32,000 nucleotides of DNA from Gemmata obscuriglobus. GTDB lineage: Bacteria > Planctomycetota > Planctomycetia > Gemmatales > Gemmataceae. Made by a program: the position numbers and the translations under genes. The DNA lies in assembly GCF_008065095.1 (NCBI RefSeq), contig NZ_CP042911.1:6990001-7022000 (forward strand), in the 5' to 3' direction. Positions 3,013 through 29,763 of the stretch are shown here, in pieces; within the stretch, counting starts at the first letter, position 1, and the number at the start of each line of letters is the position of its first letter. The notes beneath the pieces are model-generated. The model had not been told where the DNA came from and did not search any database. It worked only from the letters and a program-made list of their open reading frames with translations.

Positions 3013-3699
3013 ATGAAATTGCTACTGACCAACGACGACGGCATCGAGGCCGCCGGGCTGCACGCCCTCTTGACCGCGGCGCGCGGGCTGGGCGAGCCGG
3101 TGGTGGTCGCCCCGGCCGGACCGCAATCGGGCGTCAGCCACGCCGTCACCACCGAGGGGCCGGTCCGCGTCGACGCGCGCGACAACCGGTTTGCGGTTCA
3201 CGGCACCCCGGCCGACTGCGCCCGGGTCGGGTTGCACCGGCTGTGCCCCGACGCCGGGTTGGTGCTGTCCGGCATCAACCACGGCGGCAACCTGGGGGCG
3301 GACGTGTACTACTCCGGCACCGTGGCGGCGGTCCGCGAGGCCGTTCTTCACGGGTGGACCGGCGTCGCACTGTCGCACTACCGCAAGCGGGGAATGGAGT
3401 TCGACTGGCCGCGGGCGGCGCGCTGGGCGGCCCGCTGTTTGACCGACTTGCTCGCCCGGCCGCGGGTGCCGGGAGCGTTCTACAACGTCAACCTGCCGCA
3501 CCTGCGGCCGGACGAACCCGACCCGGAAATGGTGTTCTGCCCCCTCGACCCGCACCCCCTGCCGCTCAGCTACCGACACGAGGGCGACGGCGGGATGCGC
3601 TACGACGGCGACTACCACACCCGCCAACGAACGGCCGGGGCCGATGTCGATGTGTGCTTCGGCGGGCGAATCGCCGTCACGGTTATCAAGCTGCTTTGA
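3013..3699 (+). CDS. surE: 5'/3'-nucleotidase SurE
   Basis: The N-terminus MKLLLTNDDGIEAAGL carries the SurE signature (LxTNDDG). GINHGGNLG and YSGTVAAVREA motifs are present. Length is 228 aa. Confidence 0.9.
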   Translation: MKLLLTNDDGIEAAGLHALLTAARGLGEPVVVAPAGPQSGVSHAVTTEGPVRVDARDNRFAVHGTPADCARVGLHRLCPDAGLVLSGINHGGNLGADVYYSGTVAAVREAVLHGWTGVALSHYRKRGMEFDWPRAARWAARCLTDLLARPRVPGAFYNVNLPHLRPDEPDPEMVFCPLDPHPLPLSYRHEGDGGMRYDGDYHTRQRTAGADVDVCFGGRIAVTVIKLL

Positions 3700-22082: not shown

Positions 22083-23225
22083 TCATACGCTCGTGATCTG
22101 CTTCAGCGCGTCGGCCAGCACGTCGATATCGGCGGCGGTGCTGAACGGCCCCGGGCTGACCCGCACCAAGCCGTCAGGAGCGGTGCCAAGCGCCTTATGG
22201 ACGTACGGCGAACAGTGCAAGCCGGGGCGCACCGCGATGTTAAACGACTGGTCGAGCACACCCGCGAATTCCGGCGCCGGGAGGAGTTCACACCGAAAGC
22301 TCAGCGCACCGACGCGCTGTGCCTCGTTCGCGTGGCCGAACACCTCGAACCCGGGCAGTTCCGCAAGGGCGCCCCGCAGGCGCTCGCACAGCTCCGTTTC
22401 GTGCCGGCGGATGCTCTCGACGCCGCGCGCTTCGACGAAGTCCAGCCCGGCGACCAGCCCCACGACGCCGAGCACGTTGGGCGTACCACCTTCAAGGTAG
22501 TGCGGGAAGTCGGTTGGTTGCGTGGGGGTGAGCGAGTCGCCCCCGGTGCCGCCCTCGCGCCACGGCCGGAGCGTCACGCGCGGCCCGACGTACAGTGCGC
22601 CGGTCCCCGTGGGGCCGAGCAGCGACTTGTGCCCCGGGAACGCGAGCAGATCGATGTGCGCGGCCTGGACATCGACCGCGATCGCCCCCGCGGTCTGTGC
22701 GGCGTCGACCAGAAACAGCACGTCGCGCTCGCGGCAGATGCGCCCCACGTCGGTGATCGGCTGCACGGTGCCGAGCACGTTGCTGGCGTGGGTCATCGCG
22801 ACGAGCCGGGTCTTCGGCCCGATCGCGGCGCGCACCGCTTCGGGGTCGATCGTGCCGCCGCTGTCGGCCGGAACGCGTGTCAGGGTGATGCGCCCGGCTT
22901 CCGCGAGCGCCACCAGCGGGCGCGACACGCTGTTGTGTTCGAGGTCCGTGGTGATGACGTGGTCGCCGTCGTTCAGTACGCCCTTGAACGCCATGTTGAG
23001 GGCGTCGGTGCAGTTGAGCGTGAACGCCCAGCGTTCCGGGTTGCGGCCGTTGAAGAAGCGGTTGAGCCGGTGCCGCGCGTCGGAGAGGGCGTGCTCGGAC
23101 TCCAGCGCCATCCGGTGCCCCGAGCGCCCCGGGTTGGCGAGCGAGTGCCGCGCGAAGCGGTCCATCGCGACGTACACGCTCTCGGGCTTCGGGAAGCTGG
23201 TCGCGGCGTTATCGAGGTAGATCAT
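22083..23225 (-). CDS. Class V aminotransferase, cysteine desulfurase family (380 aa)
   Basis: MIYLDNAATSFPKP; the PLP-lysine motif FPGHKSLLGPTGTGALYV; and RPGLHCSPYVHK near the C-terminus. This resembles the stand-alone cysteine desulfurase / selenocysteine lyase-like subfamily. Confidence 0.85.
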   Translation of the reverse strand: MIYLDNAATSFPKPESVYVAMDRFARHSLANPGRSGHRMALESEHALSDARHRLNRFFNGRNPERWAFTLNCTDALNMAFKGVLNDGDHVITTDLEHNSVSRPLVALAEAGRITLTRVPADSGGTIDPEAVRAAIGPKTRLVAMTHASNVLGTVQPITDVGRICRERDVLFLVDAAQTAGAIAVDVQAAHIDLLAFPGHKSLLGPTGTGALYVGPRVTLRPWREGGTGGDSLTPTQPTDFPHYLEGGTPNVLGVVGLVAGLDFVEARGVESIRRHETELCERLRGALAELPGFEVFGHANEAQRVGALSFRCELLPAPEFAGVLDQSFNIAVRPGLHCSPYVHKALGTAPDGLVRVSPGPFSTAADIDVLADALKQITSV

Positions 23226-23539
23226 GATGAACCGTCGGCCGGCCCGAACCGGCTATGGAGGATCGCCCAGAGCGCAAAGCCGTGCCGCTCTTCTGGCAAC
23301 ACGCGGTCGAGAAACAGGTACAGCAGGTGTTGCTGTTCGCCCGACAAGTCCGCCAGGCGGAACCGCACGTCGCAAGCGTTGGAAACAGGCGGGTGGTAAC
23401 CGTGATCGACGAACCGCCACCATGTCAGCCGGTCCGCCCAGACCTCACGCGGGACGCCGACGGCGATGAGATCGGCCTCGTTAGCCGCCACCCACAGGCG
23501 CCACTCGCGTTCGCCCTGCTTGTCGCGGCGGAAGCTCAA
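23222..23539 (-). CDS. Hypothetical protein (105 aa), start uncertain
   Basis: The only start in the ORF is the TTG at 23539, which overlaps the Uma2 stop (TTGA). Its own stop overlaps the desulfurase ATG (ATGA). The sequence is Trp-rich and protein-like. I recognise no family. Confidence 0.45.
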   Translation of the reverse strand: MSFRRDKQGEREWRLWVAANEADLIAVGVPREVWADRLTWWRFVDHGYHPPVSNACDVRFRLADLSGEQQHLLYLFLDRVLPEERHGFALWAILHSRFGPADGSS

Positions 23540-24141
23540 GGCAGCAAATCGGTTACTGAGATTGTACCGACCTGCTCGCCGTCAACTACTACGGGCACCA
23601 CGTCGCCCGGGCCGTAGTCGGCGCGTGTCTTGTACGTCGGGTTCTTGCCGCCCTTCGGTTGCGTGTACACTTCCACGCACCGATCCACGAGATTTACGAT
23701 CCAGTACACGGGCAACTTGGCCTTCGCGTACTGCGGGATTTTCAACCGCCGGTCCTCGTCGAGCGAAGTGTCAGACACCTCAATGACGATCGTCACGTCC
23801 TTTTCCGTCGGGTGCCGCTTCGTGTACTGCTGTTTCGGCGCCTGGACGACGGCGACGTCCGGCTCAGGTGCGTTGTCGCCGGGGAGCCGCACCGGCAGTT
23901 GCGTGCGCGTCGTCCACTCGGCCGGGAGCAAATCGGCGATGGCGCTGTTGGTCACATCGACCGTACCGGCGTGCTGAGGGTTGTGGGCCATCTTGTCCAC
24001 CAGCCAGCCGTCGATCAGCTCGGAGCGGTCGCCGGGGGTGAAGAACCCGATCGCCGTCAGCCGCTCGTACTCCTCGATCGTGAACCGGTGAACGGAGCGC
24101 GGGGGGGCGTCGGCAGGCAGCGGCGCGACCTTCGTTCCCAT
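23536..24141 (-). CDS. Uma2-family (DUF820) putative endonuclease (201 aa)
   Basis: The start is the ATG at 24141 (MGTKVAPL...) with AGGAGG upstream. The sequence FTIEEYERL...ELIDG...PDVAVV...IVIEVSDTS...K...YA...YWIV shows the PD-(D/E)xK layout of Uma2 proteins. Confidence 0.8.
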   Translation of the reverse strand: MGTKVAPLPADAPPRSVHRFTIEEYERLTAIGFFTPGDRSELIDGWLVDKMAHNPQHAGTVDVTNSAIADLLPAEWTTRTQLPVRLPGDNAPEPDVAVVQAPKQQYTKRHPTEKDVTIVIEVSDTSLDEDRRLKIPQYAKAKLPVYWIVNLVDRCVEVYTQPKGGKNPTYKTRADYGPGDVVPVVVDGEQVGTISVTDLLP

Positions 24142-24322
24142 GCGGATACCTCCTACCGCAAGAATCTTACGCCCCACCCGGACGGCCGCGCACACCAGCG
24201 AGCCTCTGCCCCGCTGGTATGCGCCGGGCGTGCGTCCGGGGTTCACGCGGAACCGGCTCGCGTCGGTCATGCGTGCCAGAGACCCGCGCTCCGGCGCCGG
24301 CACCTTTCAACCGGATTCGGCA

Positions 24323-25378
24323 TCAGTGCCCGACGTACTTGGCGTACAGCGTGCGGGCCTTGTCCGGCTCGTCGGTGCCCTTGATGATCGCCCGGCCGTC
24401 CTCGAACACCGTGAACTCGTACGGGTCGCCGTTCTCGACCAGTTGGAACTTCAGCAGGAACTTGTTGTAGCTCACCTCGCCCGACTGCTTCAGCACGCCC
24501 GCGAGGTACGCGAAGTCGAGCTTGCCCTTCGTCCGGTGGCTCACTTGCACCGCGTTGCGGCCGCACAGCGACGTGGTCTGGGTGCCGTGCGCGCCGTCGA
24601 GCCACTCGAAGTTACGCTTCGCGCAGCACGGGCACTGCCCCTTGCGCCCCGCGAGCGGCGCCACCTTCACGCGCTTGTTGGTGTTCTCCCACACGTCGAG
24701 GATCAGCAGCTCGCGATTCACCGCGGCCTTGTTGCCGGACAGCAGCTTGATCGCCTCGGTGGCCTGGTAGCTTGCGACGATGGCGACCGCCGGCCCGAGC
24801 ACGCCGGCCGTCTCACACGTCCCGGTCTCGCCCGGGGCCGGTGCGGCCTCAAACACGCACCGCAGGCACGGCGTCTCGCCCGGGATGATGGTCATGCTCA
24901 TCCCCTGGCTGCCCACCGCCCCGCCGTAGACCCACGGCTTCCCGTGCTTGAACGCCACGTCGTTGATGAGGTAGCGGATCTCGAAGTTGTCGCTGCCGTC
25001 GAGGATCAGGTCGGCGCCGTCGCAGAAGTCCTCAATGTTGGTGCGGTTGATGTCCGCGACGATCGGCTCCACCGTGACCGACGAGTTGATCGCGCGCAGT
25101 TTGGTGGCGGCGGCCTCGGCCTTCGGCAGGTTGCTGGTCACGTCGGACTCGTCGAACAGCACCTGCCGCTGCAAGTTCGACGGCTCGACGAAGTCGCGGT
25201 CGATGACCCGCACGAACCCCACACCGGCGCGCACGAGGGTGTTGGCGAGCACGGTGCCGAGCGCGCCGCACCCGCAGAGCGTGACGCGGCTGGCGAGCAG
25301 TTTCTCCTGCCCACCTTTGCCCAGACCCGGGAACCGCATCTGGCGGGAGTAACGTTCGAGAGGGTTCGCGTCGTTCAT
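24323..25378 (-). CDS. ThiF/MoeB-family adenylyltransferase (E1-like), Bacillus MoeB/ThiF architecture, no rhodanese domain
   Basis: YSRQMRFPGLG, the nucleotide loop CGCGALGT, DRDFVEPSNLQRQ, the zinc motifs CLRC and CPCC, and a C-terminal LCGRNAVQV...FEDGRAIIKGT domain, as in B. subtilis MoeB. Confidence 0.9.
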   Translation of the reverse strand: MNDANPLERYSRQMRFPGLGKGGQEKLLASRVTLCGCGALGTVLANTLVRAGVGFVRVIDRDFVEPSNLQRQVLFDESDVTSNLPKAEAAATKLRAINSSVTVEPIVADINRTNIEDFCDGADLILDGSDNFEIRYLINDVAFKHGKPWVYGGAVGSQGMSMTIIPGETPCLRCVFEAAPAPGETGTCETAGVLGPAVAIVASYQATEAIKLLSGNKAAVNRELLILDVWENTNKRVKVAPLAGRKGQCPCCAKRNFEWLDGAHGTQTTSLCGRNAVQVSHRTKGKLDFAYLAGVLKQSGEVSYNKFLLKFQLVENGDPYEFTVFEDGRAIIKGTDEPDKARTLYAKYVGH

Positions 25379-25443: not shown

Positions 25444-25797
25444 CTACAGGCCTATTTCATTCTCTTTGAGGAACTCTTGCAGGAATCGCACGTGCTGTTT
25501 GGGCCACTTCTCTTCCCGCGCGAACCCGACCAGCGCGGCCATGTCCTCACGTACCCGCCGCAGGTCCGGCCCGTCGAGCCGCTGCATGTACGAGACGAGG
25601 TAGTGCATCGCCTCCTCGGCCACCGCCGGGTTCAGCACCCCCGGCTCGGACCCTTCGAGGAAGACGTAGCTGTGGATCGCGGCGAGCAAGAGCGGGTGGA
25701 CGCCCAGCTCGGCCGGGATCAGCGGGAACACCGCGGCCCCGTCGGGCGCCTCTTCGGGCTTCTTCTCTTCGGCGGACATCCGGAGCCTCACGGTCAA
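25444..25797 (-). CDS. Hypothetical Cys-free helical protein (111-117 aa)
   Basis: The track start is a TTG at 25797, overlapping the upstream stop. A more likely start is the ATG at 25779 (MSAEEKKPEE...). GC3 bias is good and I recognise no family. Confidence 0.55.
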   Translation of the reverse strand: MTVRLRMSAEEKKPEEAPDGAAVFPLIPAELGVHPLLLAAIHSYVFLEGSEPGVLNPAVAEEAMHYLVSYMQRLDGPDLRRVREDMAALVGFAREEKWPKQHVRFLQEFLKENEIGL

Positions 25798-26072
25798 TCG
25801 CCGACGGCGTAAATCAGTACCAGCAGTTCGTCGTCGCCGTGAACCGCGTCAGGATCGTATCGCAACGACTCGCCGTCAGAATCGCGATACAGTTCGAACC
25901 ACCCGTGCGGGTTACCGTCCGCGTCGATCAGCCGCTCGCTCAGCGACGGGAACCGCGCCGCGAGTTCGTGGTAGATAGCGGCCCACGTCTTGGCCGCAAC
26001 TCGTACTTCAGCCGCCTTATGACCTTGCTGCTCGGGAGAAAAGTAGACGTTCGGCAGCAAAACGGTCGGCAT
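25794..26072 (-). CDS. Second beta-grasp (MoaD/ThiS-like) protein without a C-terminal Gly-Gly (92 aa)
   Basis: ATG 3 nt after the MoaD-like stop. Length and pattern follow MoaD: ...FPSLSERLIDADG...YDPDAVHGDDELLVLIYAVGD can be set against ...YPGVEPKLFADGK...MDTAVTDGVIVALIPAVAGG in the neighbour. It ends in GD rather than GG. Confidence 0.5.
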   Translation of the reverse strand: MPTVLLPNVYFSPEQQGHKAAEVRVAAKTWAAIYHELAARFPSLSERLIDADGNPHGWFELYRDSDGESLRYDPDAVHGDDELLVLIYAVGD

Positions 26073-26075
26073 ACG

Positions 26076-26348
26076 TCACCCGCCCGCGACGGCGGGAATG
26101 AGCGCCACGATCACGCCGTCGGTCACCGCGGTGTCCATCTCGTCGAGGTAGCGGATGTCCTCGTCGTTCAGGAACACGTTGATGTACGGGCGGAGCTTGC
26201 CGTCCGCGAACAGCTTGGGCTCGACCCCGGGGTACTGGCGCACGAGGTCCGCGAGCGCGGCCTTCACGGTCGCGCCGGTCACGTCCACTTCCGCCTTCCC
26301 GCCGGTCTGCTCGCGCATCGGGGTCGGGATCTGAACCTTGATCGCCAT
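26076..26348 (-). CDS. MoaD/ThiS-family sulfur-carrier protein ending in Gly-Gly (90 aa)
   Basis: MAIKVQIPTPMREQTGGKAEVDV...DGVIVALIPAVAGG-stop. Size, pattern and the terminal GG are typical of CysO/MoaD/ThiS-type carriers. Confidence 0.8.
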   Translation of the reverse strand: MAIKVQIPTPMREQTGGKAEVDVTGATVKAALADLVRQYPGVEPKLFADGKLRPYINVFLNDEDIRYLDEMDTAVTDGVIVALIPAVAGG

Positions 26349-26369: not shown

Positions 26370-26738
26370 TCATCGTGGGATAATCAGCATTATCCACATT
26401 CCGATAGTTAACAGCACCGCTACGCCCAGCCACACACGCCACAGCAGCGGGAGTTGGCGGAACGCGATCAGAGCATTGTTCTCGGCGCTGGCGCGGGCCA
26501 CCATGCGGTTCGTCCACGGGAACAACAGCAAGCCGATGCCGGTCCAGGTTCCGCCGCCCGCGAACAGGCCTTGGAAAGCGATGACCGCACGAATCCGGAC
26601 CCGGCCGGCGCCCTCGACGAACACCATGACGGCCATGATCGCGCCGAGGAGCAGAAGTGCCGCGCCCAGCGGGCGCGACTTTTTGTGCGGTCGATCGGGG
26701 TCCGGGCCGGCGTCCGGCCGTTCGCCGGGCGGGCTCAC
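26370..26738 (-). CDS. Small predicted 3-TM membrane protein (~122 aa)
   Basis: The GTG at 26736-26738 overlaps the TGA of the ThrC-like gene (GTGA). Hydrophobic segments are LGAALLLLGAIMAVMVFV, VIAFQGLFAGGGTWTGIGLLLFPW and LLWRVWLGVAVLLTIGMWIMLII. This is the only sensible part of the 447-aa track ORF. The start could instead be an internal ATG. Confidence 0.5.
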   Translation of the reverse strand: MSPPGERPDAGPDPDRPHKKSRPLGAALLLLGAIMAVMVFVEGAGRVRIRAVIAFQGLFAGGGTWTGIGLLLFPWTNRMVARASAENNALIAFRQLPLLWRVWLGVAVLLTIGMWIMLIIPR

Positions 26739-28006
26739 ACCAGCACCGGTTCCGCAGCCCGCTCGCCCAGCCCGACCAGTTCCTTGAAGTCGGCCAGGGC
26801 CGGCTTGATGACCGCCGGCTCGTCGAGGGCGTCGAACACCGCGTCCTGGGTCTTGAGCCCGTTGCCGGTGATGCAGATCACGATCTCCTCGTGCCGCGGG
26901 ATGCGGCCCGACTCGATCAGCTTCTTGGCGACCGCCAGCGTCGTCCCGCCGGCCGTCTCCGCGAACACGCCCTCGGTCTTCGCGAGGAGCTGCATCCCCT
27001 CCACGATCTCCGCGTCGGTCACGTCCTCGGCCCAGCCGCCGGTCTCGCGGATCAGCTTCGCCGCGAAGTACCCGTCGGCCGGGTCGCCGATGGCGAGGCT
27101 CTTGCAGATCGTGTTGGGGGTCCGCACCGGCTTGTGCCGCTCGCGGTTGCTCTTCACGCAGTCCGCGATCGGGTTGCAGCCGGCGGCCTGCGCCCCGTAC
27201 ATCTTGGTCGTGACCGGTTGGTCCACGAGCCCGAGCTTGCTCAGCTCGGTGAACCCCTTGTGGATCTTGCCGATCAGCGCGCCGCCGGCCATCGGGCAGA
27301 CGACGTGCTGCGGGAACCGCCAGCCCAGGTCCTCGGCGATCTCGAACCCGACCGTCTTGGACCCTTCCGCGTAGAACGGGCGCAGGTTCACGTTCACGAA
27401 CCCCCACCCGTACTCCATCACGATCTGGGTGCAGAGCCGGTTCACCTGGTCGTAGGTGCCGGACACCTTCACGACCTTCGCGCCGTACACCGCGGTGCCC
27501 AGGATCTTGACCCGCTCGAGGTCGGCCGGGACCAGGATGGTGGCCTCGAGCCCGGCGGACGCGGACAGCGCCGCGACGCTGTTGGCGAGGTTCCCGGTGC
27601 TGGCGCACCCGACCATCCGCATCCCGAGTTCGCGGGCCTTCGAGAGCGCGACGGAGACGACGCGGTCCTTGAACGAGAGGGTCGGGAAGTTGACCGCGTC
27701 GTTCTTGATCCACAGCCGCTCGACGCCCAGCGCGTCCGCGAGCCGGTCGGCGCGGATCAGCGGGGTGCCGCCGACCTGCGGGCCGACGGTCGGTTCGCCG
27801 TCGAGCGGGAGCAGCTCACGGTACCGCCACATGTTTTTGGGGCGCGACTGGAACTTGGCCCGGCTGACGTGCGGCTTGATCTTTTCGTAATCGTAGGCGA
27901 CTTCGAGCGGCCCGGAATCGTCGGCGCAGAAGAAGTGCGCGCCCTTCGGGTACAGTTTGCCGCACACGCGACACTTCAGGCCCAGAACGAAGTCGTTACT
28001 CGCCAC
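26735..28006 (-). CDS. Threonine synthase-family PLP enzyme (ThrC homologue; MetM-like role proposed)
   Basis: The likely start is the GTG at 28006 with AGGGG 8 nt upstream; the track start is a TTG at 28036. The N-terminus is zinc-ribbon-like (CRVCG). The PLP-lysine motif is NFPTLSFKDR. GCASTGNLANS and the overall ThrC layout are present. Confidence 0.85.
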   Translation of the reverse strand: MASNDFVLGLKCRVCGKLYPKGAHFFCADDSGPLEVAYDYEKIKPHVSRAKFQSRPKNMWRYRELLPLDGEPTVGPQVGGTPLIRADRLADALGVERLWIKNDAVNFPTLSFKDRVVSVALSKARELGMRMVGCASTGNLANSVAALSASAGLEATILVPADLERVKILGTAVYGAKVVKVSGTYDQVNRLCTQIVMEYGWGFVNVNLRPFYAEGSKTVGFEIAEDLGWRFPQHVVCPMAGGALIGKIHKGFTELSKLGLVDQPVTTKMYGAQAAGCNPIADCVKSNRERHKPVRTPNTICKSLAIGDPADGYFAAKLIRETGGWAEDVTDAEIVEGMQLLAKTEGVFAETAGGTTLAVAKKLIESGRIPRHEEIVICITGNGLKTQDAVFDALDEPAVIKPALADFKELVGLGERAAEPVLV

Positions 28007-28176
28007 AGAAACACCCCTGGTGAGAGACAAACGCAACTCGCTTTTCGGAGCGAAGTTACGCGGTCGATTTCGTTACGGGGTGAGTGCTTAGCCAGATGCG
28101 CCGCAACGCGTCCCTGTGTGCGGCTGGGTGGTGAGATAAGAGTACGGCGGGGCCGTAAAGAACGGCCCTACACGAG

Positions 28177-28342
28177 ATCTTATCTTCCCCGGCCATACCA
28201 CGTCTCAGTTCGGGAGACGATGGCGTTTGCCGGGCAGGAGTTAGCACCTGCATCCGAGACCCGAGTTGTGTGCTCGAATCGAAACGGACCGGTTGCTGTG
28301 GCGTCGTCGGGCCTGGCCCCTCAGCCACTCTGGATAAGATAC
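28177..28342 (-). promoter_or_regulatory. SAM-I (S-box) riboswitch aptamer
   Basis: The minus strand reads AUCUUAUC-CAGAG-UGGCUGAGGGGCCAGGCCCGACGACGCCAC-AGCAACC...GGUGCUAACUCCUGCC...GAAGAUAAGAU. This matches the conserved SAM-I core (UUAUCaAGAG, GAGGGA, GGCCC, GA-k-turn, GCAACC, GGUGCcAAuUCC, AGAUAAG). P1 is an 8-bp helix, AUCUUAUC with GAUAAGAU. P3 and P4 appear extended. Confidence 0.8.
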
Positions 28343-28393
28343 TCACCAACTTTAATTTTCAAAACGGCCGCTCGAACGCGGTGCGTTGGAAGA

Positions 28394-28422
28394 AGGATAC
28401 GGTGATTCTGCCGCCCTGGCAA
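28394..28422 (-). promoter_or_regulatory. Candidate promoter for the riboswitch-led operon
   Basis: The minus strand reads TTGCCA (28417-28422), a 17-nt spacer, then TATCCT (28394-28399), about 55 nt upstream of P1. This is pattern match only. Confidence 0.25.
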
Positions 28423-28524: not shown

Positions 28525-29763
28525 ATGGTCACGTTGCGCGGTTGCGCCCGCTGGGCGGTCTTCGTGCTCCCCGTCATCGGTCTGGCGGCGCTCCTCGGGT
28601 GCGCGCCGGCGCCGCGCCCCGACGGCACGTCCCCCCGCCCCCACCGGGCGATGGCGTCCGCCGACGGCCCGGTGATCGTCCCGCCGGGGGCGGTGCTGGC
28701 GAACCCGTCGGACCTCGACGCGGGGCTGCGCAAGCCCCGGCACGTGCTCGCCCTGTCCAGCGGCGGGCTCTACGGCGCGTACTCCGCCGGCGTCCTCGAC
28801 GGGTGGAGCCGGACCGGGCTGCGGCCCGAGTTCGACGTGGTCACCGGGACCAGCACCGGGGCGCTGATCGCCCCGTTCGCGTTCCTGGGCAGCCACTACG
28901 ACGCGCAATCGATGAAGCTCTACACGGGGGTGCGCGCCGAGGACATTTTCCGCGCCCGGGCGTGGATCACGATCCCGTTCCGCGACGCCCTCGCCACCTC
29001 CGCCCCGCTCAAAAAGCTGATCGAATCGCAGGTCAACCAGGACCTCATGGCGGCGATCGCCGCGGAGCACCGCAAGGGCCGCCGGCTGTACGTCGGGACG
29101 ACGGACCTGCGCACCAAACGGACGGTGATCTGGGACATGGGCGCGATCGCGTGCCGGCCGCCCTCCGAGGGGAGCGCGCTGTTCCGCGACGTGCTGCTGG
29201 CGTCCGCCTCGATCCCGGGCGTGGCCCCGCCGGTGCCGTTCCGCATCGAGGTCGACGGGCAGCAGGTCACCGAGTACCACACCGACGGCGGCATCACCGC
29301 GCCGCTGTTCGTCCCGCCGAACGTGTTCATGAGCGCCGCGCCCGAGCCGGGCGAGCCGCCGGCGTTCGCGGGCGCGGGGTTCTACGCCATCGTGGCCGGG
29401 AAGCTGTACCCGGACGAAGGGCCGGTGCGGCGCCGCATCCTCCCGGTCCTGGGGGCCAGCACCGCGGCGCTGCTCGCGGCCCACTGCCGGGCGGAGCTGG
29501 CGAACATGTACTGGCAGGCGCGGTACGCCGGGATGCGGTACCACATGATCGCGCTGAGCCAGGACGCGCACATTCAGCCCGATTCGGCCGTCAGCTTCGA
29601 CCAGGACCTGATGAAGCGGCTGTACGAAGAGGGCCGGCGCGACGGCGAGGGCGGGCCGAACTGGCTGTACTCCCCGCCGGCGCTCAGCCCGTGCGACGGC
29701 GACTACGCCCGCGGCAGCTCCCGGCTCCGGACCATGCCCACGGTTCCGATTTCGGTGCCGTAA
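28525..29763 (+). CDS. Patatin-like phospholipase, predicted lipoprotein (412 aa)
   Basis: Signal peptide with lipobox AALLGC. The oxyanion region is LSSGGLYGAYSAG, the GxSxG motif is GTSTG, and the catalytic Asp is in TDGG. Confidence 0.85.
   Translation: MVTLRGCARWAVFVLPVIGLAALLGCAPAPRPDGTSPRPHRAMASADGPVIVPPGAVLANPSDLDAGLRKPRHVLALSSGGLYGAYSAGVLDGWSRTGLRPEFDVVTGTSTGALIAPFAFLGSHYDAQSMKLYTGVRAEDIFRARAWITIPFRDALATSAPLKKLIESQVNQDLMAAIAAEHRKGRRLYVGTTDLRTKRTVIWDMGAIACRPPSEGSALFRDVLLASASIPGVAPPVPFRIEVDGQQVTEYHTDGGITAPLFVPPNVFMSAAPEPGEPPAFAGAGFYAIVAGKLYPDEGPVRRRILPVLGASTAALLAAHCRAELANMYWQARYAGMRYHMIALSQDAHIQPDSAVSFDQDLMKRLYEEGRRDGEGGPNWLYSPPALSPCDGDYARGSSRLRTMPTVPISVP

Follow-up and report, generated by a model that had tools for sequence, protein, structure and literature searches.

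A SAM-I riboswitch in front of a probable metM-metO-type operon in Gemmata obscuriglobus and its predicted action on the ribosome-binding site

Introduction

In the 32,000-nt stretch of Gemmata obscuriglobus DNA analyzed here (from here: the window), a gene deposited under the name 'threonine synthase' is preceded on the minus strand by a long leader resembling a S-adenosylmethionine (SAM) riboswitch. The locus raises the questions why such a gene should respond to SAM and how the state of the aptamer could be relayed to a start codon 171 nt away. The original prediction, made from the letters of the sequence, placed a SAM-I riboswitch in this leader, saw in a duplicated 5′ P1 sequence further down the leader a competitor for the 3′ P1 strand, and suggested that CACCC elements cover the Shine-Dalgarno (SD) region in an OFF switch working without a terminator. 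The regulated gene was considered not to be a classical met gene, so that the riboswitch served as a functional label for the operon.

Experimental precedent for a SAM-I riboswitch acting on translation exists in the met operon of Xanthomonas campestris, where SAM-I Xcc exerts mainly translational control by anti-SD and anti-AUG pairing within a long platform (PMC7270179). In Xanthomonas, the anti-SD hairpin forms in the absence of SAM as well, and uncharged initiator tRNA opens it (PMC7270179). With regard to the regulated genes, MetM and MetO of Streptomyces albulus constitute a thiocarboxylate route to homocysteine, and the metM gene has already been described as preceded by a SAM riboswitch (Hasebe 2024, as related in PMC12172450 and the GapMind 2026 preprint). 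Our literature search on SAM riboswitches in Gemmata or Planctomycetes returned nothing specific.

Materials and methods

The window was scanned with the Rfam covariance models, in which pseudoknots such as that between the P2 loop and J3/4 carry no score; the gathering score of RF00162 is 44.4 bits. Folds were computed without constraints and with P1 enforced; all energies describe secondary structure only and ignore the tertiary contacts of the aptamer, and the unconstrained minimum-energy fold never has P1. The MAFFT alignment of the leaders put E2 and the SD out of register, and an anchored pseudo-alignment of five platform segments was built. Because P1, the 5′ flank, E1 and CUGG are almost invariant across the leaders, covariation is nearly absent, and duplex-energy tests were used in place of column-based covariation. 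Permutation and Wilcoxon tests were not corrected for shared ancestry. Accessibility was calculated for an 18-nt span from the SD to the start codon, after which the measure was narrowed to the SD core and its specific partners.

Results

The leader carries a complete and conserved SAM-I aptamer

The sole Rfam match in the window was RF00162 (SAM-I) at 28340..28177 on the minus strand, with 73.8 bits (E 1e-15) and covering model positions 1–108 of 108. In the cmscan alignment, the four-helix junction is present with P1 (8 bp), P2, P3 and P4, and the junction nucleotides AGAG, GAGGG, GCAACC and AGGUGCUAA..CCUGC are kept. P1 is formed by AUCUUAUC (28340..28333) and GAUAAGAU (28184..28177). Only the P3 and P4 loops carry insertions, which are 28 and 33 nt long, respectively.

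A same-strand RF00162 aptamer lies upstream of the orthologous gene in all 32 Gemmatales loci scanned with Rfam, at scores of 48.7–90.7 bits. The P1-motif search found the aptamer in 69 of 80 loci, and Rfam recovered every locus that the motif had missed. By the covariance model, the leader element is a genuine SAM-I riboswitch, with SAM binding as its predicted property. The original prediction was correct in this respect, including the nearly full set of core elements and the 8-bp P1, and all the sequence features it had listed were present at the positions given. The Gemmata aptamer is well conserved but an ordinary case of a known switch type, and its pairing with metM is known from Streptomyces.

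From the promoter-like site to the start codon, the leader comprises the following features (window positions, all on the minus strand):

28394..28422, minus strand: promoter-like site TTGCCA, 17 nt, TATCCT, from a consensus scan
28342..28347, minus strand: 5′ flank GGUGAG, directly upstream of P1, from folds and conservation
28177..28340, minus strand: SAM-I (S-box) aptamer with P1–P4 and long P3 and P4 loop insertions, from the full RF00162 model
28145..28174, minus strand: H1, a predicted hairpin rich in G+C, located after the 3′ P1 strand and before E1
28126..28142, minus strand: E1, CUCUUAUCUCACCACCC, a copy of the 5′ P1 strand (anti-P1) followed by CUCACC and CACCC, from sequence and fold
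28100..28124, minus strand: H2, a predicted hairpin that separates E1 from E2 and varies in sequence
28077..28096, minus strand: E2, UCUGGCUAAGCACUCACCCC, whose 3′ CACCCC (28082..28077) is a candidate anti-SD, from duplex energy and folds
28031..28061, minus strand: H3, a predicted 12-bp hairpin ahead of the ribosome-binding region, without a free U tract after it
28012..28017, minus strand: SD-like GGGGUG with a 5-nt spacer to the start codon GTG (28006), from the sequence

The promoter-like arrangement TTGCC(G/A)-N17-TA.TCCT is kept in an alignment of 21 related upstream regions and suggests a transcription start near 28387. The conserved UUGACAACUU just 5′ of the flank was considered as a −35 box and rejected, since its spacing puts the transcription start inside P1.

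In the predicted folds, P1 competes with two conserved pairings

The duplicated 5′ P1 strand, CUUAUCUC, is located at 28140..28133 and adjoined by CACCC at 28130..28126. In the unconstrained fold, the 3′ P1 strand AGAUAAGA (28185..28178) pairs over 8 bp with UCUUAUCU (28141..28134), and CUCUUAUCUC within E1 is kept in about 55 related leaders. The competitor proposed in the original prediction is thus supported; a second switching helix had been missed. This helix involves E2 (28096..28077), which is complementary to a segment termed S1 (28347..28329) consisting of the 5′ flank GGUGAG, the 5′ P1 strand and CCAG. The S1:E2 duplex has an energy of −20.8 kcal/mol in the window (z = −3.5), and over 66 leaders its mean z against shuffled sequences is −2.6.

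The unconstrained fold contains S1:E2 (7 + 9 bp) beside the 8 bp between the 3′ P1 strand and E1. Enforcing P1 frees E2. The probability of S1:E2 drops from 0.51 to 0.01 on enforcing P1, together with the rise in SD:E2 pairing described below. The flank GGUGAG changes its partner accordingly in the computed folds, from the CUCACC of E2 in the ligand-free fold to the CUCACC of E1 once P1 is enforced. Holding P1 in place costs 0.7 kcal/mol before E1 is transcribed, 5.4 kcal/mol with E1 present in the transcript and 10.6 kcal/mol after E2 has been added.

About 55 leaders share E1 and E2. In 54 leaders the flank hardly varies and its six pairs with E2 are 87–94% canonical; one two-sided, compensatory change was found in this helix, GGCGAG with UUCGCC in leader L021. 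Together, the folds and their conservation support mutually exclusive structures in which P1 would exclude both the pairing of its 3′ strand with E1 and the S1:E2 helix.

Hairpins of variable sequence occur at the H1 position in related leaders, and H1 itself forms in the free and the P1-enforced fold alike. In the P1-enforced fold of the window, H2 is predicted to give way to pairing of its 5′ arm with 28014..27998 in the start region. On reading the related leaders this pairing showed no apparent conservation, and we regard it as a window-specific prediction.

The window's leader has no recognizable intrinsic terminator

The original prediction had noted that no hairpin with a U tract is visible in this leader, and neither the pattern scan nor folding found one. 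In the leader of the window, no hairpin is followed by four or more consecutive U, and the custom fold search found no hairpin combined with a run of at least five U there. The pattern scan returned three terminator-like matches against 1.2 ± 1.2 in shuffled sequences; two of these were on the leader strand, and both were weak.

The two sites flagged belong to H1 and H3 and could be read as an intrinsic terminator of non-canonical type, in which a poor U tract follows a G+C-rich hairpin, formed either by H1 with CCGUACUCUUAUCUC or by H3 with UUGUCUCUC. Terminators do occur in relatives: two distant Gemmatales have a clear hairpin followed by a U tract, of −15.4 kcal/mol with U7 in L067 and of −12.4 kcal/mol with U5 in L072. 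These terminators lie about 42–44 nt after the aptamer and use an E1-like element as their 5′ arm. The pattern scan missed the one in L067, with a loop of more than 8 nt, and the custom fold recovered that hairpin. For the window, however, the number of matches is within the shuffle expectation, and no run of at least four U follows H1 or H3. Moreover, H1 is present in both folds and would hence not be SAM-dependent, and the 'tail' of the H3 match falls within an extended stem. A terminator of this type is therefore most improbable in our view. A specific variant, with H1 and the U-rich tract of E1 as a SAM-dependent terminator, was rejected for the presence of H1 in both states and also because a tract that is still in the RNA-DNA hybrid cannot be pre-sequestered.

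By comparison of leaders, E2 is the better candidate for an anti-SD

The elements named for SD sequestration in the original prediction are all present, namely CACCC at 28130..28126, the second CACCCC at 28082..28077 and GGGGUG at 28017..28012. The SD-like element appears as (A)GGGGUG or GGGUG at the SD position in most related leaders; GGGGUG is an imperfect SD.

In the window, the probability that the SD core is unpaired falls from 0.54 to 0.07 when P1 is enforced. Over 56 leaders, the accessibility of the SD core decreases from 0.26 to 0.17, and the probability of SD:E2 pairing increases from 0.26 to 0.55. Over the 18-nt span from the SD to the start codon, mean accessibility barely shifts (0.39 to 0.36), and the prediction has the SD mostly base-paired already in the SAM-free state. 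In the P1-enforced fold of the window itself, the probability of SD:E2 is only 0.06; the start region pairs mainly with 28124..28108 and with neither CACCC.

In the own-versus-cross duplex test, E2 matched the SD of its own leader with p = 0.0115 and the CACCC adjacent to E1 did so with p = 0.09, both values being uncorrected for the shared ancestry of the leaders. The sequence of E2 tracks the type of SD: CACCCC occurs with GGGGUG, GCUCC with GGAGC (L020) and CCUC with GGAGG (L069, L071). As an anti-SD, the CACCCC of E2 thus appears better supported by the comparison than the CACCC adjacent to E1. The stronger proposal that E2 is the unique best duplex partner of the SD was rejected: E2 ranked first in just 14 of the 56 leaders, since the arms of G+C-rich hairpins reach equal scores.

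Taken together, the predicted folds and the comparison give moderate support to SD sequestration as the output step. Of the original proposal, the SD-sequestering OFF switch without a U-tract terminator is the probable mechanism, with E2 tracking the SD; its pairing scheme deviates from the fold of the window, in which the start region contacts neither CACCC.

A third copy of CUCACC lies at 28024..28019, directly 5′ of the SD-like GGGGUG, and its CACC could form a constitutive local hairpin, a point against regulated occlusion. The repeated CUCACC motifs resemble part of the 3′ tail of 16S rRNA.

The modest predicted shift in SD accessibility also fits another output, in which the same aptamer and the same competition among P1, E1 and E2 regulate premature Rho-dependent termination. 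SAM would then free E1 and E2 (CUCUUAUCUCACCACCC and CUAAGCACUCACCCC) as long single strands, rich in C and poor in G, for the loading of Rho, and lost translation would reinforce termination through polarity. Rho-dependent riboswitch control is established for the mgtA leader of Salmonella and the ribB leader of E. coli. The platforms contain on average 38% C and 25% G over 56 leaders (34% and 25% in the window), and the long leader, with its 171 nt between aptamer and start, has no intrinsic terminator. Yet anti-SD mimics would result in the same C-richness, and the complementarity of E2 to the SD follows the SD type across lineages, a match that a pure Rho model does not need. In addition, the Nonomuraea version described below stops 13 nt before the AUG and can act only on translation. 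We consider Rho as the main output unlikely and retain occlusion of the ribosome-binding site as the preferred reading.

The operon resembles a metM-metO cluster

The genes downstream of the leader are, in window positions on the minus strand:

26735..28006, minus strand: MetM-like ThrC-fold PLP enzyme, 423 aa, a probable sulfur-carrier-dependent homocysteine synthase (PF00291, TIGR00260)
26370..26738, minus strand: ORF for a predicted membrane protein, 122 aa, whose GTG overlaps the metM TGA (GTGA)
26076..26348, minus strand: MetO-like sulfur carrier, 90 aa, ThiS/MoaD fold, ending ...AVAGG (PF02597)
25444..26072, minus strand: two small ORFs, orf92 (26072..25794) and orf117 (25797..25444)
24323..25378, minus strand: ThiF/MoeB-type E1 adenylyltransferase, 351 aa, presumed to activate the carrier (PF00899, PRK12475)
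22083..23225, minus strand: class-V aminotransferase-fold cysteine desulfurase, 380 aa, presumed to supply the sulfur (PF00266, TIGR01977)

The 423-aa product starting at GTG 28006 shows 100% identity to the 'threonine synthase' deposited for Gemmata obscuriglobus. It matches PF00291 at 9.6e-71 and shares at most 39% identity with haloarchaeal genes annotated as thrC. The carrier has its best solved relatives in 4n6e_B and in M. tuberculosis CysO (3dwg_C, E 1.3e-18), and its gene follows that of the MetM-like enzyme in 68 of 80 loci. The ThiF-type E1 enzyme, in which no rhodanese domain was detected, is kept in 64 of 80 loci. The cysteine desulfurase was seen in 42 of 80 loci, a count based on flanks of at most 4 kb downstream and on many contigs that end before the desulfurase gene.

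Among the smaller ORFs, orf117 is kept in 62 of the 80 loci and orf92 in only six; neither had a Pfam or NCBIfam match. The 122-aa membrane-protein ORF, which has no Pfam family, is kept in L016, L002 and L014 and absent in L001. The apparent 386-nt gap between metM and metO is accounted for by this small ORF and not by an RNA element.

No JAMM/Mec-like protein was found among the downstream genes of the cluster. As the carrier already ends in Gly-Gly, maturation by Mec may be dispensable in the Gemmata cluster.

Judged from this gene set, the operon most likely converts O-phosphohomoserine to homocysteine via a thiocarboxylated MetO-like carrier. The assignment of a MetM function to the ThrC homologue derives from its context and from 50% identity to an uncharacterised Nonomuraea gene, which makes the function a probable one. 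The riboswitch labels the function of the operon as had been proposed, the genes being methionine-related by their MetM/MetO-type composition. The description as not a classical met gene no longer marks a novelty, since the MetM/MetO pathway with its ThrC homologue and sulfur carrier was published in 2024 and the SAM riboswitch of metM has been reported.

Alternatively, the enzyme could be a real threonine synthase or a bifunctional ThrC, with SAM balancing the threonine and methionine branches at O-phosphohomoserine. Its score against TIGR00260 (thrC) is 287 bits at a cut-off of 167, the best PDB matches are ThrC structures, and all database names read 'threonine synthase'. Furthermore, a cyanobacterial MetM homologue acted as ThrC and deaminase in vitro. 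Against this reading, a Gly-Gly carrier, an E1 enzyme and a cysteine desulfurase are linked to the gene in more than 60 loci behind one SAM-controlled leader, and the same layout of riboswitch and carrier is present in an actinomycete, the phylum in which homocysteine synthesis by MetM/MetO was shown. With a SAM OFF switch on threonine synthase, abundant methionine would bring threonine down, whereas the allosteric control of plant threonine synthase by SAM works in the reverse sense. Finally, MetM is 'often misannotated' as threonine synthase (GapMind 2026 preprint). A threonine synthase under SAM control is thus very unlikely here, and we continue with homocysteine synthesis as the preferred function.

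Discussion

We regard it as probable that the leader of this metM-metO-type operon is a SAM-I OFF switch that occludes the ribosome-binding site, and that the operon most likely makes homocysteine from O-phosphohomoserine. Without SAM, the 3′ P1 strand (28185..28178) would pair with E1 (28141..28134), and the flank GGUGAG, the 5′ P1 strand and CCAG (28347..28329) would pair with E2 (28096..28079), so that the C-rich end of E2 is tied up. With SAM, P1 would be locked, leaving the flank free to pair with the CUCACC of E1, and E2 would be released. A C-rich anti-SD could then cover GGGGUG (28017..28012) and the GTG start at 28006 and thereby lower the translation of the first gene. For this anti-SD, the CACCCC of E2 at 28082..28077 is the main candidate; other segments may contribute, such as 28124..28108 in the fold of the window. 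No intrinsic terminator would be involved in the Gemmata obscuriglobus lineage. The clustered E1 enzyme and cysteine desulfurase would charge the thiocarboxylated MetO-like carrier.

A more far-reaching reading, which we put forward tentatively and hold to be possible but doubtful, is that the platform constitutes a distinct two-decoy relay, with E1 as the decoy for the 3′ P1 strand and E2 as the decoy for the 5′ P1 strand and the SD-like flank, carrying the signal over about 170 nt. The operon would then be a self-contained planctomycete variant of the thiocarboxylate route with its own E1 enzyme and desulfurase, without Mec and with orf117 and the 122-aa membrane protein.

The B. subtilis yitJ and metI S-box leaders belong to the same aptamer family and likewise precede methionine-pathway operons. 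The proposed logic is also shared: SAM turns expression off, and P1 is challenged by a repeat of its 5′ strand further downstream, which vies for the 3′ strand. In contrast to these leaders, that of Gemmata is without a terminator hairpin and U tract, has in E2 a second conserved competitor for the flank and the 5′ P1 strand, and carries the 28- and 33-nt insertions in the P3 and P4 loops in a planctomycete host of about 68% G+C. SAM-I Xcc is similar in combining a SAM-I aptamer on a met-type operon with translational control, proposed for Gemmata, in a long platform. It differs in its genes and from the layout with the two decoys E1 and E2, and nothing in Gemmata suggests binding of tRNA.

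A parallel outside the Planctomycetota was found in Nonomuraea gerenzanensis (L081; NZ_LT559118.1, 11810232-11811461), with an RF00162 match at 68.7 bits. The riboswitch, a ThrC-like gene (50% identity) and a 91-aa carrier ending in AVAGG (43%) have the same order and strand as in Gemmata. Here, the aptamer ends 13 nt before the AUG with its 3′ P1 strand abutting the SD-like GAGGGAAGG, and there is no E1/E2 relay. In the list of ORFs, no E1-enzyme or desulfurase ORF was apparent in about 3 kb downstream.

Similar to metM-metO of S. albulus, as that system is summarized in the sources cited above, Gemmata has a ThrC-homologous enzyme and a small carrier behind a SAM riboswitch, and the step proposed for both leads from O-phosphohomoserine to homocysteine. 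S. albulus reportedly needs Mec for maturation of the carrier as well as MoeZ, whereas the Gemmata carrier already ends in Gly-Gly. Going by the same summaries, the ThiF-type E1 enzyme and cysteine desulfurase within the cluster and the extra conserved small ORFs distinguish Gemmata from S. albulus.

The gene set further resembles the CysO-CysM system of M. tuberculosis, in which a Gly-Gly carrier of the ThiS/MoaD fold and a ThiF-type E1 enzyme provide sulfide to a PLP enzyme. Protein-thiocarboxylate sulfur transfer also operates in Wolinella, with HcyS and a MetY-type enzyme. Unlike CysM or the MetY-type partners, the PLP enzyme of Gemmata has the threonine-synthase fold.

Conclusions

The understanding of how SAM-I riboswitches work is unchanged by the Gemmata case. 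With leaders from about 80 orthologous loci, it offers a natural experiment in the evolution of expression platforms. Aptamer and gene stay the same, and the platform takes three forms: a long terminator-free relay in the lineages of Gemmata and Fimbriiglobus, a classical terminator in some of the distant Gemmatales and a compact arrangement of 13 nt in Nonomuraea. The association of a SAM riboswitch with metM and metO is extended from Actinomycetota to Planctomycetota, here with an own E1 enzyme and cysteine desulfurase. For the organism itself, a database name is corrected, as the 'threonine synthase' behind the riboswitch is most likely a homocysteine synthase of the MetM/MetO route, an identity that fills in the methionine synthesis of Gemmata and related planctomycetes.

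The SAM-I aptamer and its conservation

An Rfam scan of the whole window placed the SAM-I (S-box) family RF00162 on the minus strand (28340..28177), scoring 73.8 bits (E 1e-15) against a gathering score of 44.4 bits; model positions 1-108 of 108 were covered, and no other Rfam family was matched. The SAM-I riboswitch originally predicted in the minus-strand leader was thus confirmed. The aptamer is a plain RF00162 member, its extra length consisting of insertions of 28 nt in the P3 loop and 33 nt in the P4 loop. When the minus strand was read between 27700 and 28600, the short elements CUUAUCUC, CACCC, CACCCC, GGGGUG and GTG were also found where they had been predicted.

Features of the leader
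28422..28394, minus strand: promoter-like TTGCCA-17-TATCCT (consensus scan)
28340..28333 with 28184..28177, minus strand: P1, 8 bp, AUCUUAUC with GAUAAGAU
28140..28133, minus strand: duplicated 5' P1 strand, CUUAUCUC
28130..28126, minus strand: CACCC near the duplicated P1 strand
28082..28077, minus strand: CACCCC, second copy
28017..28012, minus strand: Shine-Dalgarno (SD)-like GGGGUG
28006, minus strand: GTG start

The 423-aa product read from the GTG at 28006 is 100% identical to a deposited Gemmata obscuriglobus 'threonine synthase', which supports this start codon. Further upstream, the promoter-like site is kept as TTGCC(G/A)-N17-TA.TCCT in 21 related upstream regions. We infer a transcription start near 28387, so that the flank GGUGAG just 5' of P1 would be part of the RNA. 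Between the promoter-like site and the flank come a hairpin of variable sequence and then, just ahead of the flank, a conserved UUGACAACUUAAG. Motifs resembling UUGACAACUUAAG stand just 5' of GGUGAG in most Gemmataceae leaders (window copy UUGAAAAUUAAAG, 28351..28363, minus strand), and a similar CAACAACUUCAUA precedes the aptamer at the Nonomuraea gerenzanensis locus L081 (2826..2841); neither a pairing partner nor a role was found for the motif. Divergent from the riboswitch promoter region lies a patatin-like phospholipase gene (28525..29763, plus strand), which resembles CBASS and anti-phage phospholipase models only weakly, scoring far under their cut-offs.

For comparison, 80 loci with relatives of the ThrC-like protein were taken from species-representative genomes, all of them Gemmataceae or Gemmatales (protein identity 69-96%). 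In each of 16 diverse loci, Rfam detected RF00162 on the same strand ahead of the gene, and likewise in 16 of 16 further loci picked as divergent or as failures of a simple motif search, which itself found the aptamer at 69 of the 80 loci. Aptamer length ranges from ~100 to ~227 nt because of insertions in the P3 and P4 loops. A second aptamer subtype occurs in L032, L033, L037, L038, L047, L049, L052, L054, L055 and L065, with a P1 of ..ACGAUC and GAUCAGAC in place of UCUUAUC and GAUAAGA; its platform, as read in L032, L049 and L052, has a GGGUG..CACCC hairpin, then UCUCUAUCU and a GAGG-type SD. At L078, a tRNA gene (3452..3526) lies ~170 nt upstream of the aptamer.

Switching helices of the expression platform

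Leader comparison showed a common layout in ~55 loci of Gemmata, Fimbriiglobus and Frigoriglobus type: the flank GGUGAG(U/C)A, the aptamer, a variable hairpin H1, element E1 (CUCUUAUCUCACC), a variable hairpin H2, element E2 (CUGG..(U)AAG..CUCACCC), a variable region, (A)GGGGUG or GGGUG, and GUG. The duplicated P1 strand, predicted to act as an anti-P1, corresponds to the conserved E1 and does pair with the 3' P1 strand in the unconstrained fold, AGAUAAGA (28185..28178) with UCUUAUCU (28141..28134). This part of the predicted architecture stood, but it was incomplete, as E2 had been overlooked. The sequence of E2 is reverse-complementary to the flank, the 5' P1 strand and CCAG, and in the same fold GGUGAGU (28347..28341) pairs with ACUCACC (28085..28079) and CUUAUCCAGA (28338..28329) with UCUGGCUAAG (28096..28087). 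When P1 is enforced, the flank moves to CUCACCA of E1 (28135..28129) and E2 becomes unpaired.

In nearly all leaders the best duplex is that of the flank-plus-P1 segment with E2 (mean z = -2.6 versus dinucleotide shuffles). At the six flank:E2 positions, 87-94% of the pairs are canonical; both sides are almost invariant, and only one change affects the two together (L021, GGCGAG with UUCGCC). Along the growing window transcript, the cost of enforcing P1 is 0.7 kcal/mol once H1 is complete, 5.4 once E1 has been added and 10.6 once E2 has been added, and it is 6.9 for the whole transcript. Costs of this size could be offset by nM to µM SAM binding.

Proposed occlusion of the SD, and terminators

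The output step, SD occlusion, is plausible but unproven and the weakest link of the proposed switch. Across 56 leaders, enforcing P1 raised the pairing probability of the SD core with E2 from 0.26 to 0.55 and lowered SD-core accessibility from 0.26 to 0.17 (Wilcoxon p = 3e-8 and 5e-6, ignoring relatedness of the leaders). Against occlusion, accessibility was nearly flat over a wider 18-nt window (0.39 vs 0.36), and E2 ranked first among SD partners in just 14 of the 56 leaders. In favour of it, the 3' part of E2 matches the local SD type: CACCCC with GGGGUG, GCUCC with GGAGC (L020), CCUC with GGAGG (L069, L071), and in L003 GCAC-U-CCCC with GGGG-UU-GUGC. Own E2:SD duplexes averaged -12.56 kcal/mol versus -11.80 across loci (permutation p = 0.0115); the same test for the CACCC beside E1 gave p = 0.09. 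The window's own fold speaks against it: with P1 enforced the start region (28014..27998) pairs over 16 bp with the 5' arm of H2 (28124..28108), and P(SD:E2) is only 0.06; even so, the SD core becomes less accessible there (0.54 to 0.07). The base composition of the platforms, rich in C and poor in G (38% C vs 25% G), fits anti-SD mimicry but would suit Rho loading sites as well.

In the window (28019..28024, minus strand) and in many related leaders, the SD-like GGGGUG is preceded at a distance of 2-8 nt by a third CUCACC/CACC copy. This copy, a further point against occlusion, might fold with the SD into a small local hairpin or else pair with the 5' flank. The Fimbriiglobus-type loci L056, L057, L058, L061 and L063 carry CCCACC, the SD AGGGUG and UUUUU directly before GUG, and therefore a sequestering hairpin could double there as a terminator-like structure. 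The L063 flank, GGUGGG, is the perfect complement of the CCCACC before its SD.

As predicted, neither the terminator pattern scan nor the folds revealed a hairpin followed by a U run in the window leader, and the Gemmata-type platform does not belong to the terminator class. A clear hairpin with U5-7 is present ~42-44 nt after the aptamer in the distant relatives L067 and L072, where an E1-like element supplies its 5' arm; this long-loop terminator was missed by the pattern scan and recovered by folding. The same aptamer and gene are therefore combined with different expression platforms between lineages.

The regulated gene cluster

Genes of the cluster
28006..26735, minus strand: ThrC-fold PLP enzyme
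26738..26370, minus strand: ORF of 122 aa with stretches predicted to span the membrane; start GTG overlaps the TGA of the enzyme gene (GTGA)
26348..26076, minus strand: ThiS/MoaD-fold carrier, 90 aa, Gly-Gly C-terminus
25794..26072, minus strand: orf92, directly 3' of the carrier gene
25444..25797, minus strand: orf117, between carrier and E1 enzyme genes
25378..24323, minus strand: ThiF/MoeB-type E1 enzyme (distinct from RNA element E1)
23536..24303, minus strand: Uma2-family gene (nuclease; putative restriction endonuclease), between E1 enzyme and cysteine desulfurase genes
23225..22083, minus strand: cysteine desulfurase

The nearest solved relatives of the first enzyme are threonine synthases, which lack its Cys-rich N-terminal 55 residues; those of the carrier are 4n6e_B and Mycobacterium tuberculosis CysO. 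On contigs of sufficient length, the 80 loci keep the order enzyme, carrier, orf117, E1 enzyme, (Uma2), desulfurase (carrier in 68, E1 enzyme in 64, orf117 in 62, desulfurase in 42). The 122-aa ORF accounts for the apparent 386-nt gap before the carrier gene; it matched no Pfam family, shows codon-level conservation in L016, L002 and L014, and is absent in L001. No Pfam or NCBIfam family matched orf117 (51-97% identity), which could be a part of the sulfur-relay cluster that has so far gone unrecognised. Relatives of orf92, itself without any family match, occur in only 6/80 loci (35-41% identity). A Uma2 gene occupies that place in 35/80 loci, at only 35-67% identity and far more divergent than its neighbours.

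Relation to metM-metO systems

Translational control of a SAM-I riboswitch by anti-SD and anti-AUG pairing was shown experimentally for the Xanthomonas met operon (PMC7270179). The regulated gene had been singled out as not a classical met gene, a novelty that is outdated: Streptomyces albulus MetM is a threonine-synthase homologue 'often misannotated as such', which converts O-phosphohomoserine to homocysteine using the MetO carrier thiocarboxylate and is helped by Mec and MoeZ (Hasebe et al. 2024, as summarised in the GapMind 2026 preprint), and a 2025 mSystems paper states that a SAM riboswitch lies upstream of S. albulus metM. Full-text literature searches returned no paper on a SAM riboswitch in Gemmata or Planctomycetes. 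The Gemmata case is set apart by its planctomycete host, by a long relay platform in which each P1 strand has a dedicated competitor, and by a cluster with its own E1 enzyme and desulfurase, a carrier already ending in Gly-Gly, and no Mec-like protease.

A protein search of a plasmid collection gave a homologue 50% identical to the ThrC-like enzyme in Nonomuraea gerenzanensis (L081, NZ_LT559118.1), and haloarchaeal genes annotated thrC at no more than 39% identity. NZ_LT559118.1 is filed there as 'plasmid I'; at 11.85 Mb with only 10 annotated features, the record looks like the chromosome, and its metM-like gene is unannotated. As in Gemmata and S. albulus, a SAM riboswitch stands upstream of the Nonomuraea gene (RF00162, 68.7 bits; 13 nt separate its end from the AUG), and a 91-aa carrier ending in AVAGG, 43% identical to that of Gemmata, begins 24 nt after the enzyme stop. 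The SAM-I, metM, metO cassette is therefore common to Actinomycetota and Gemmata. Although published work had already deciphered this label, the riboswitch does serve as a functional label for the operon, as originally suggested.
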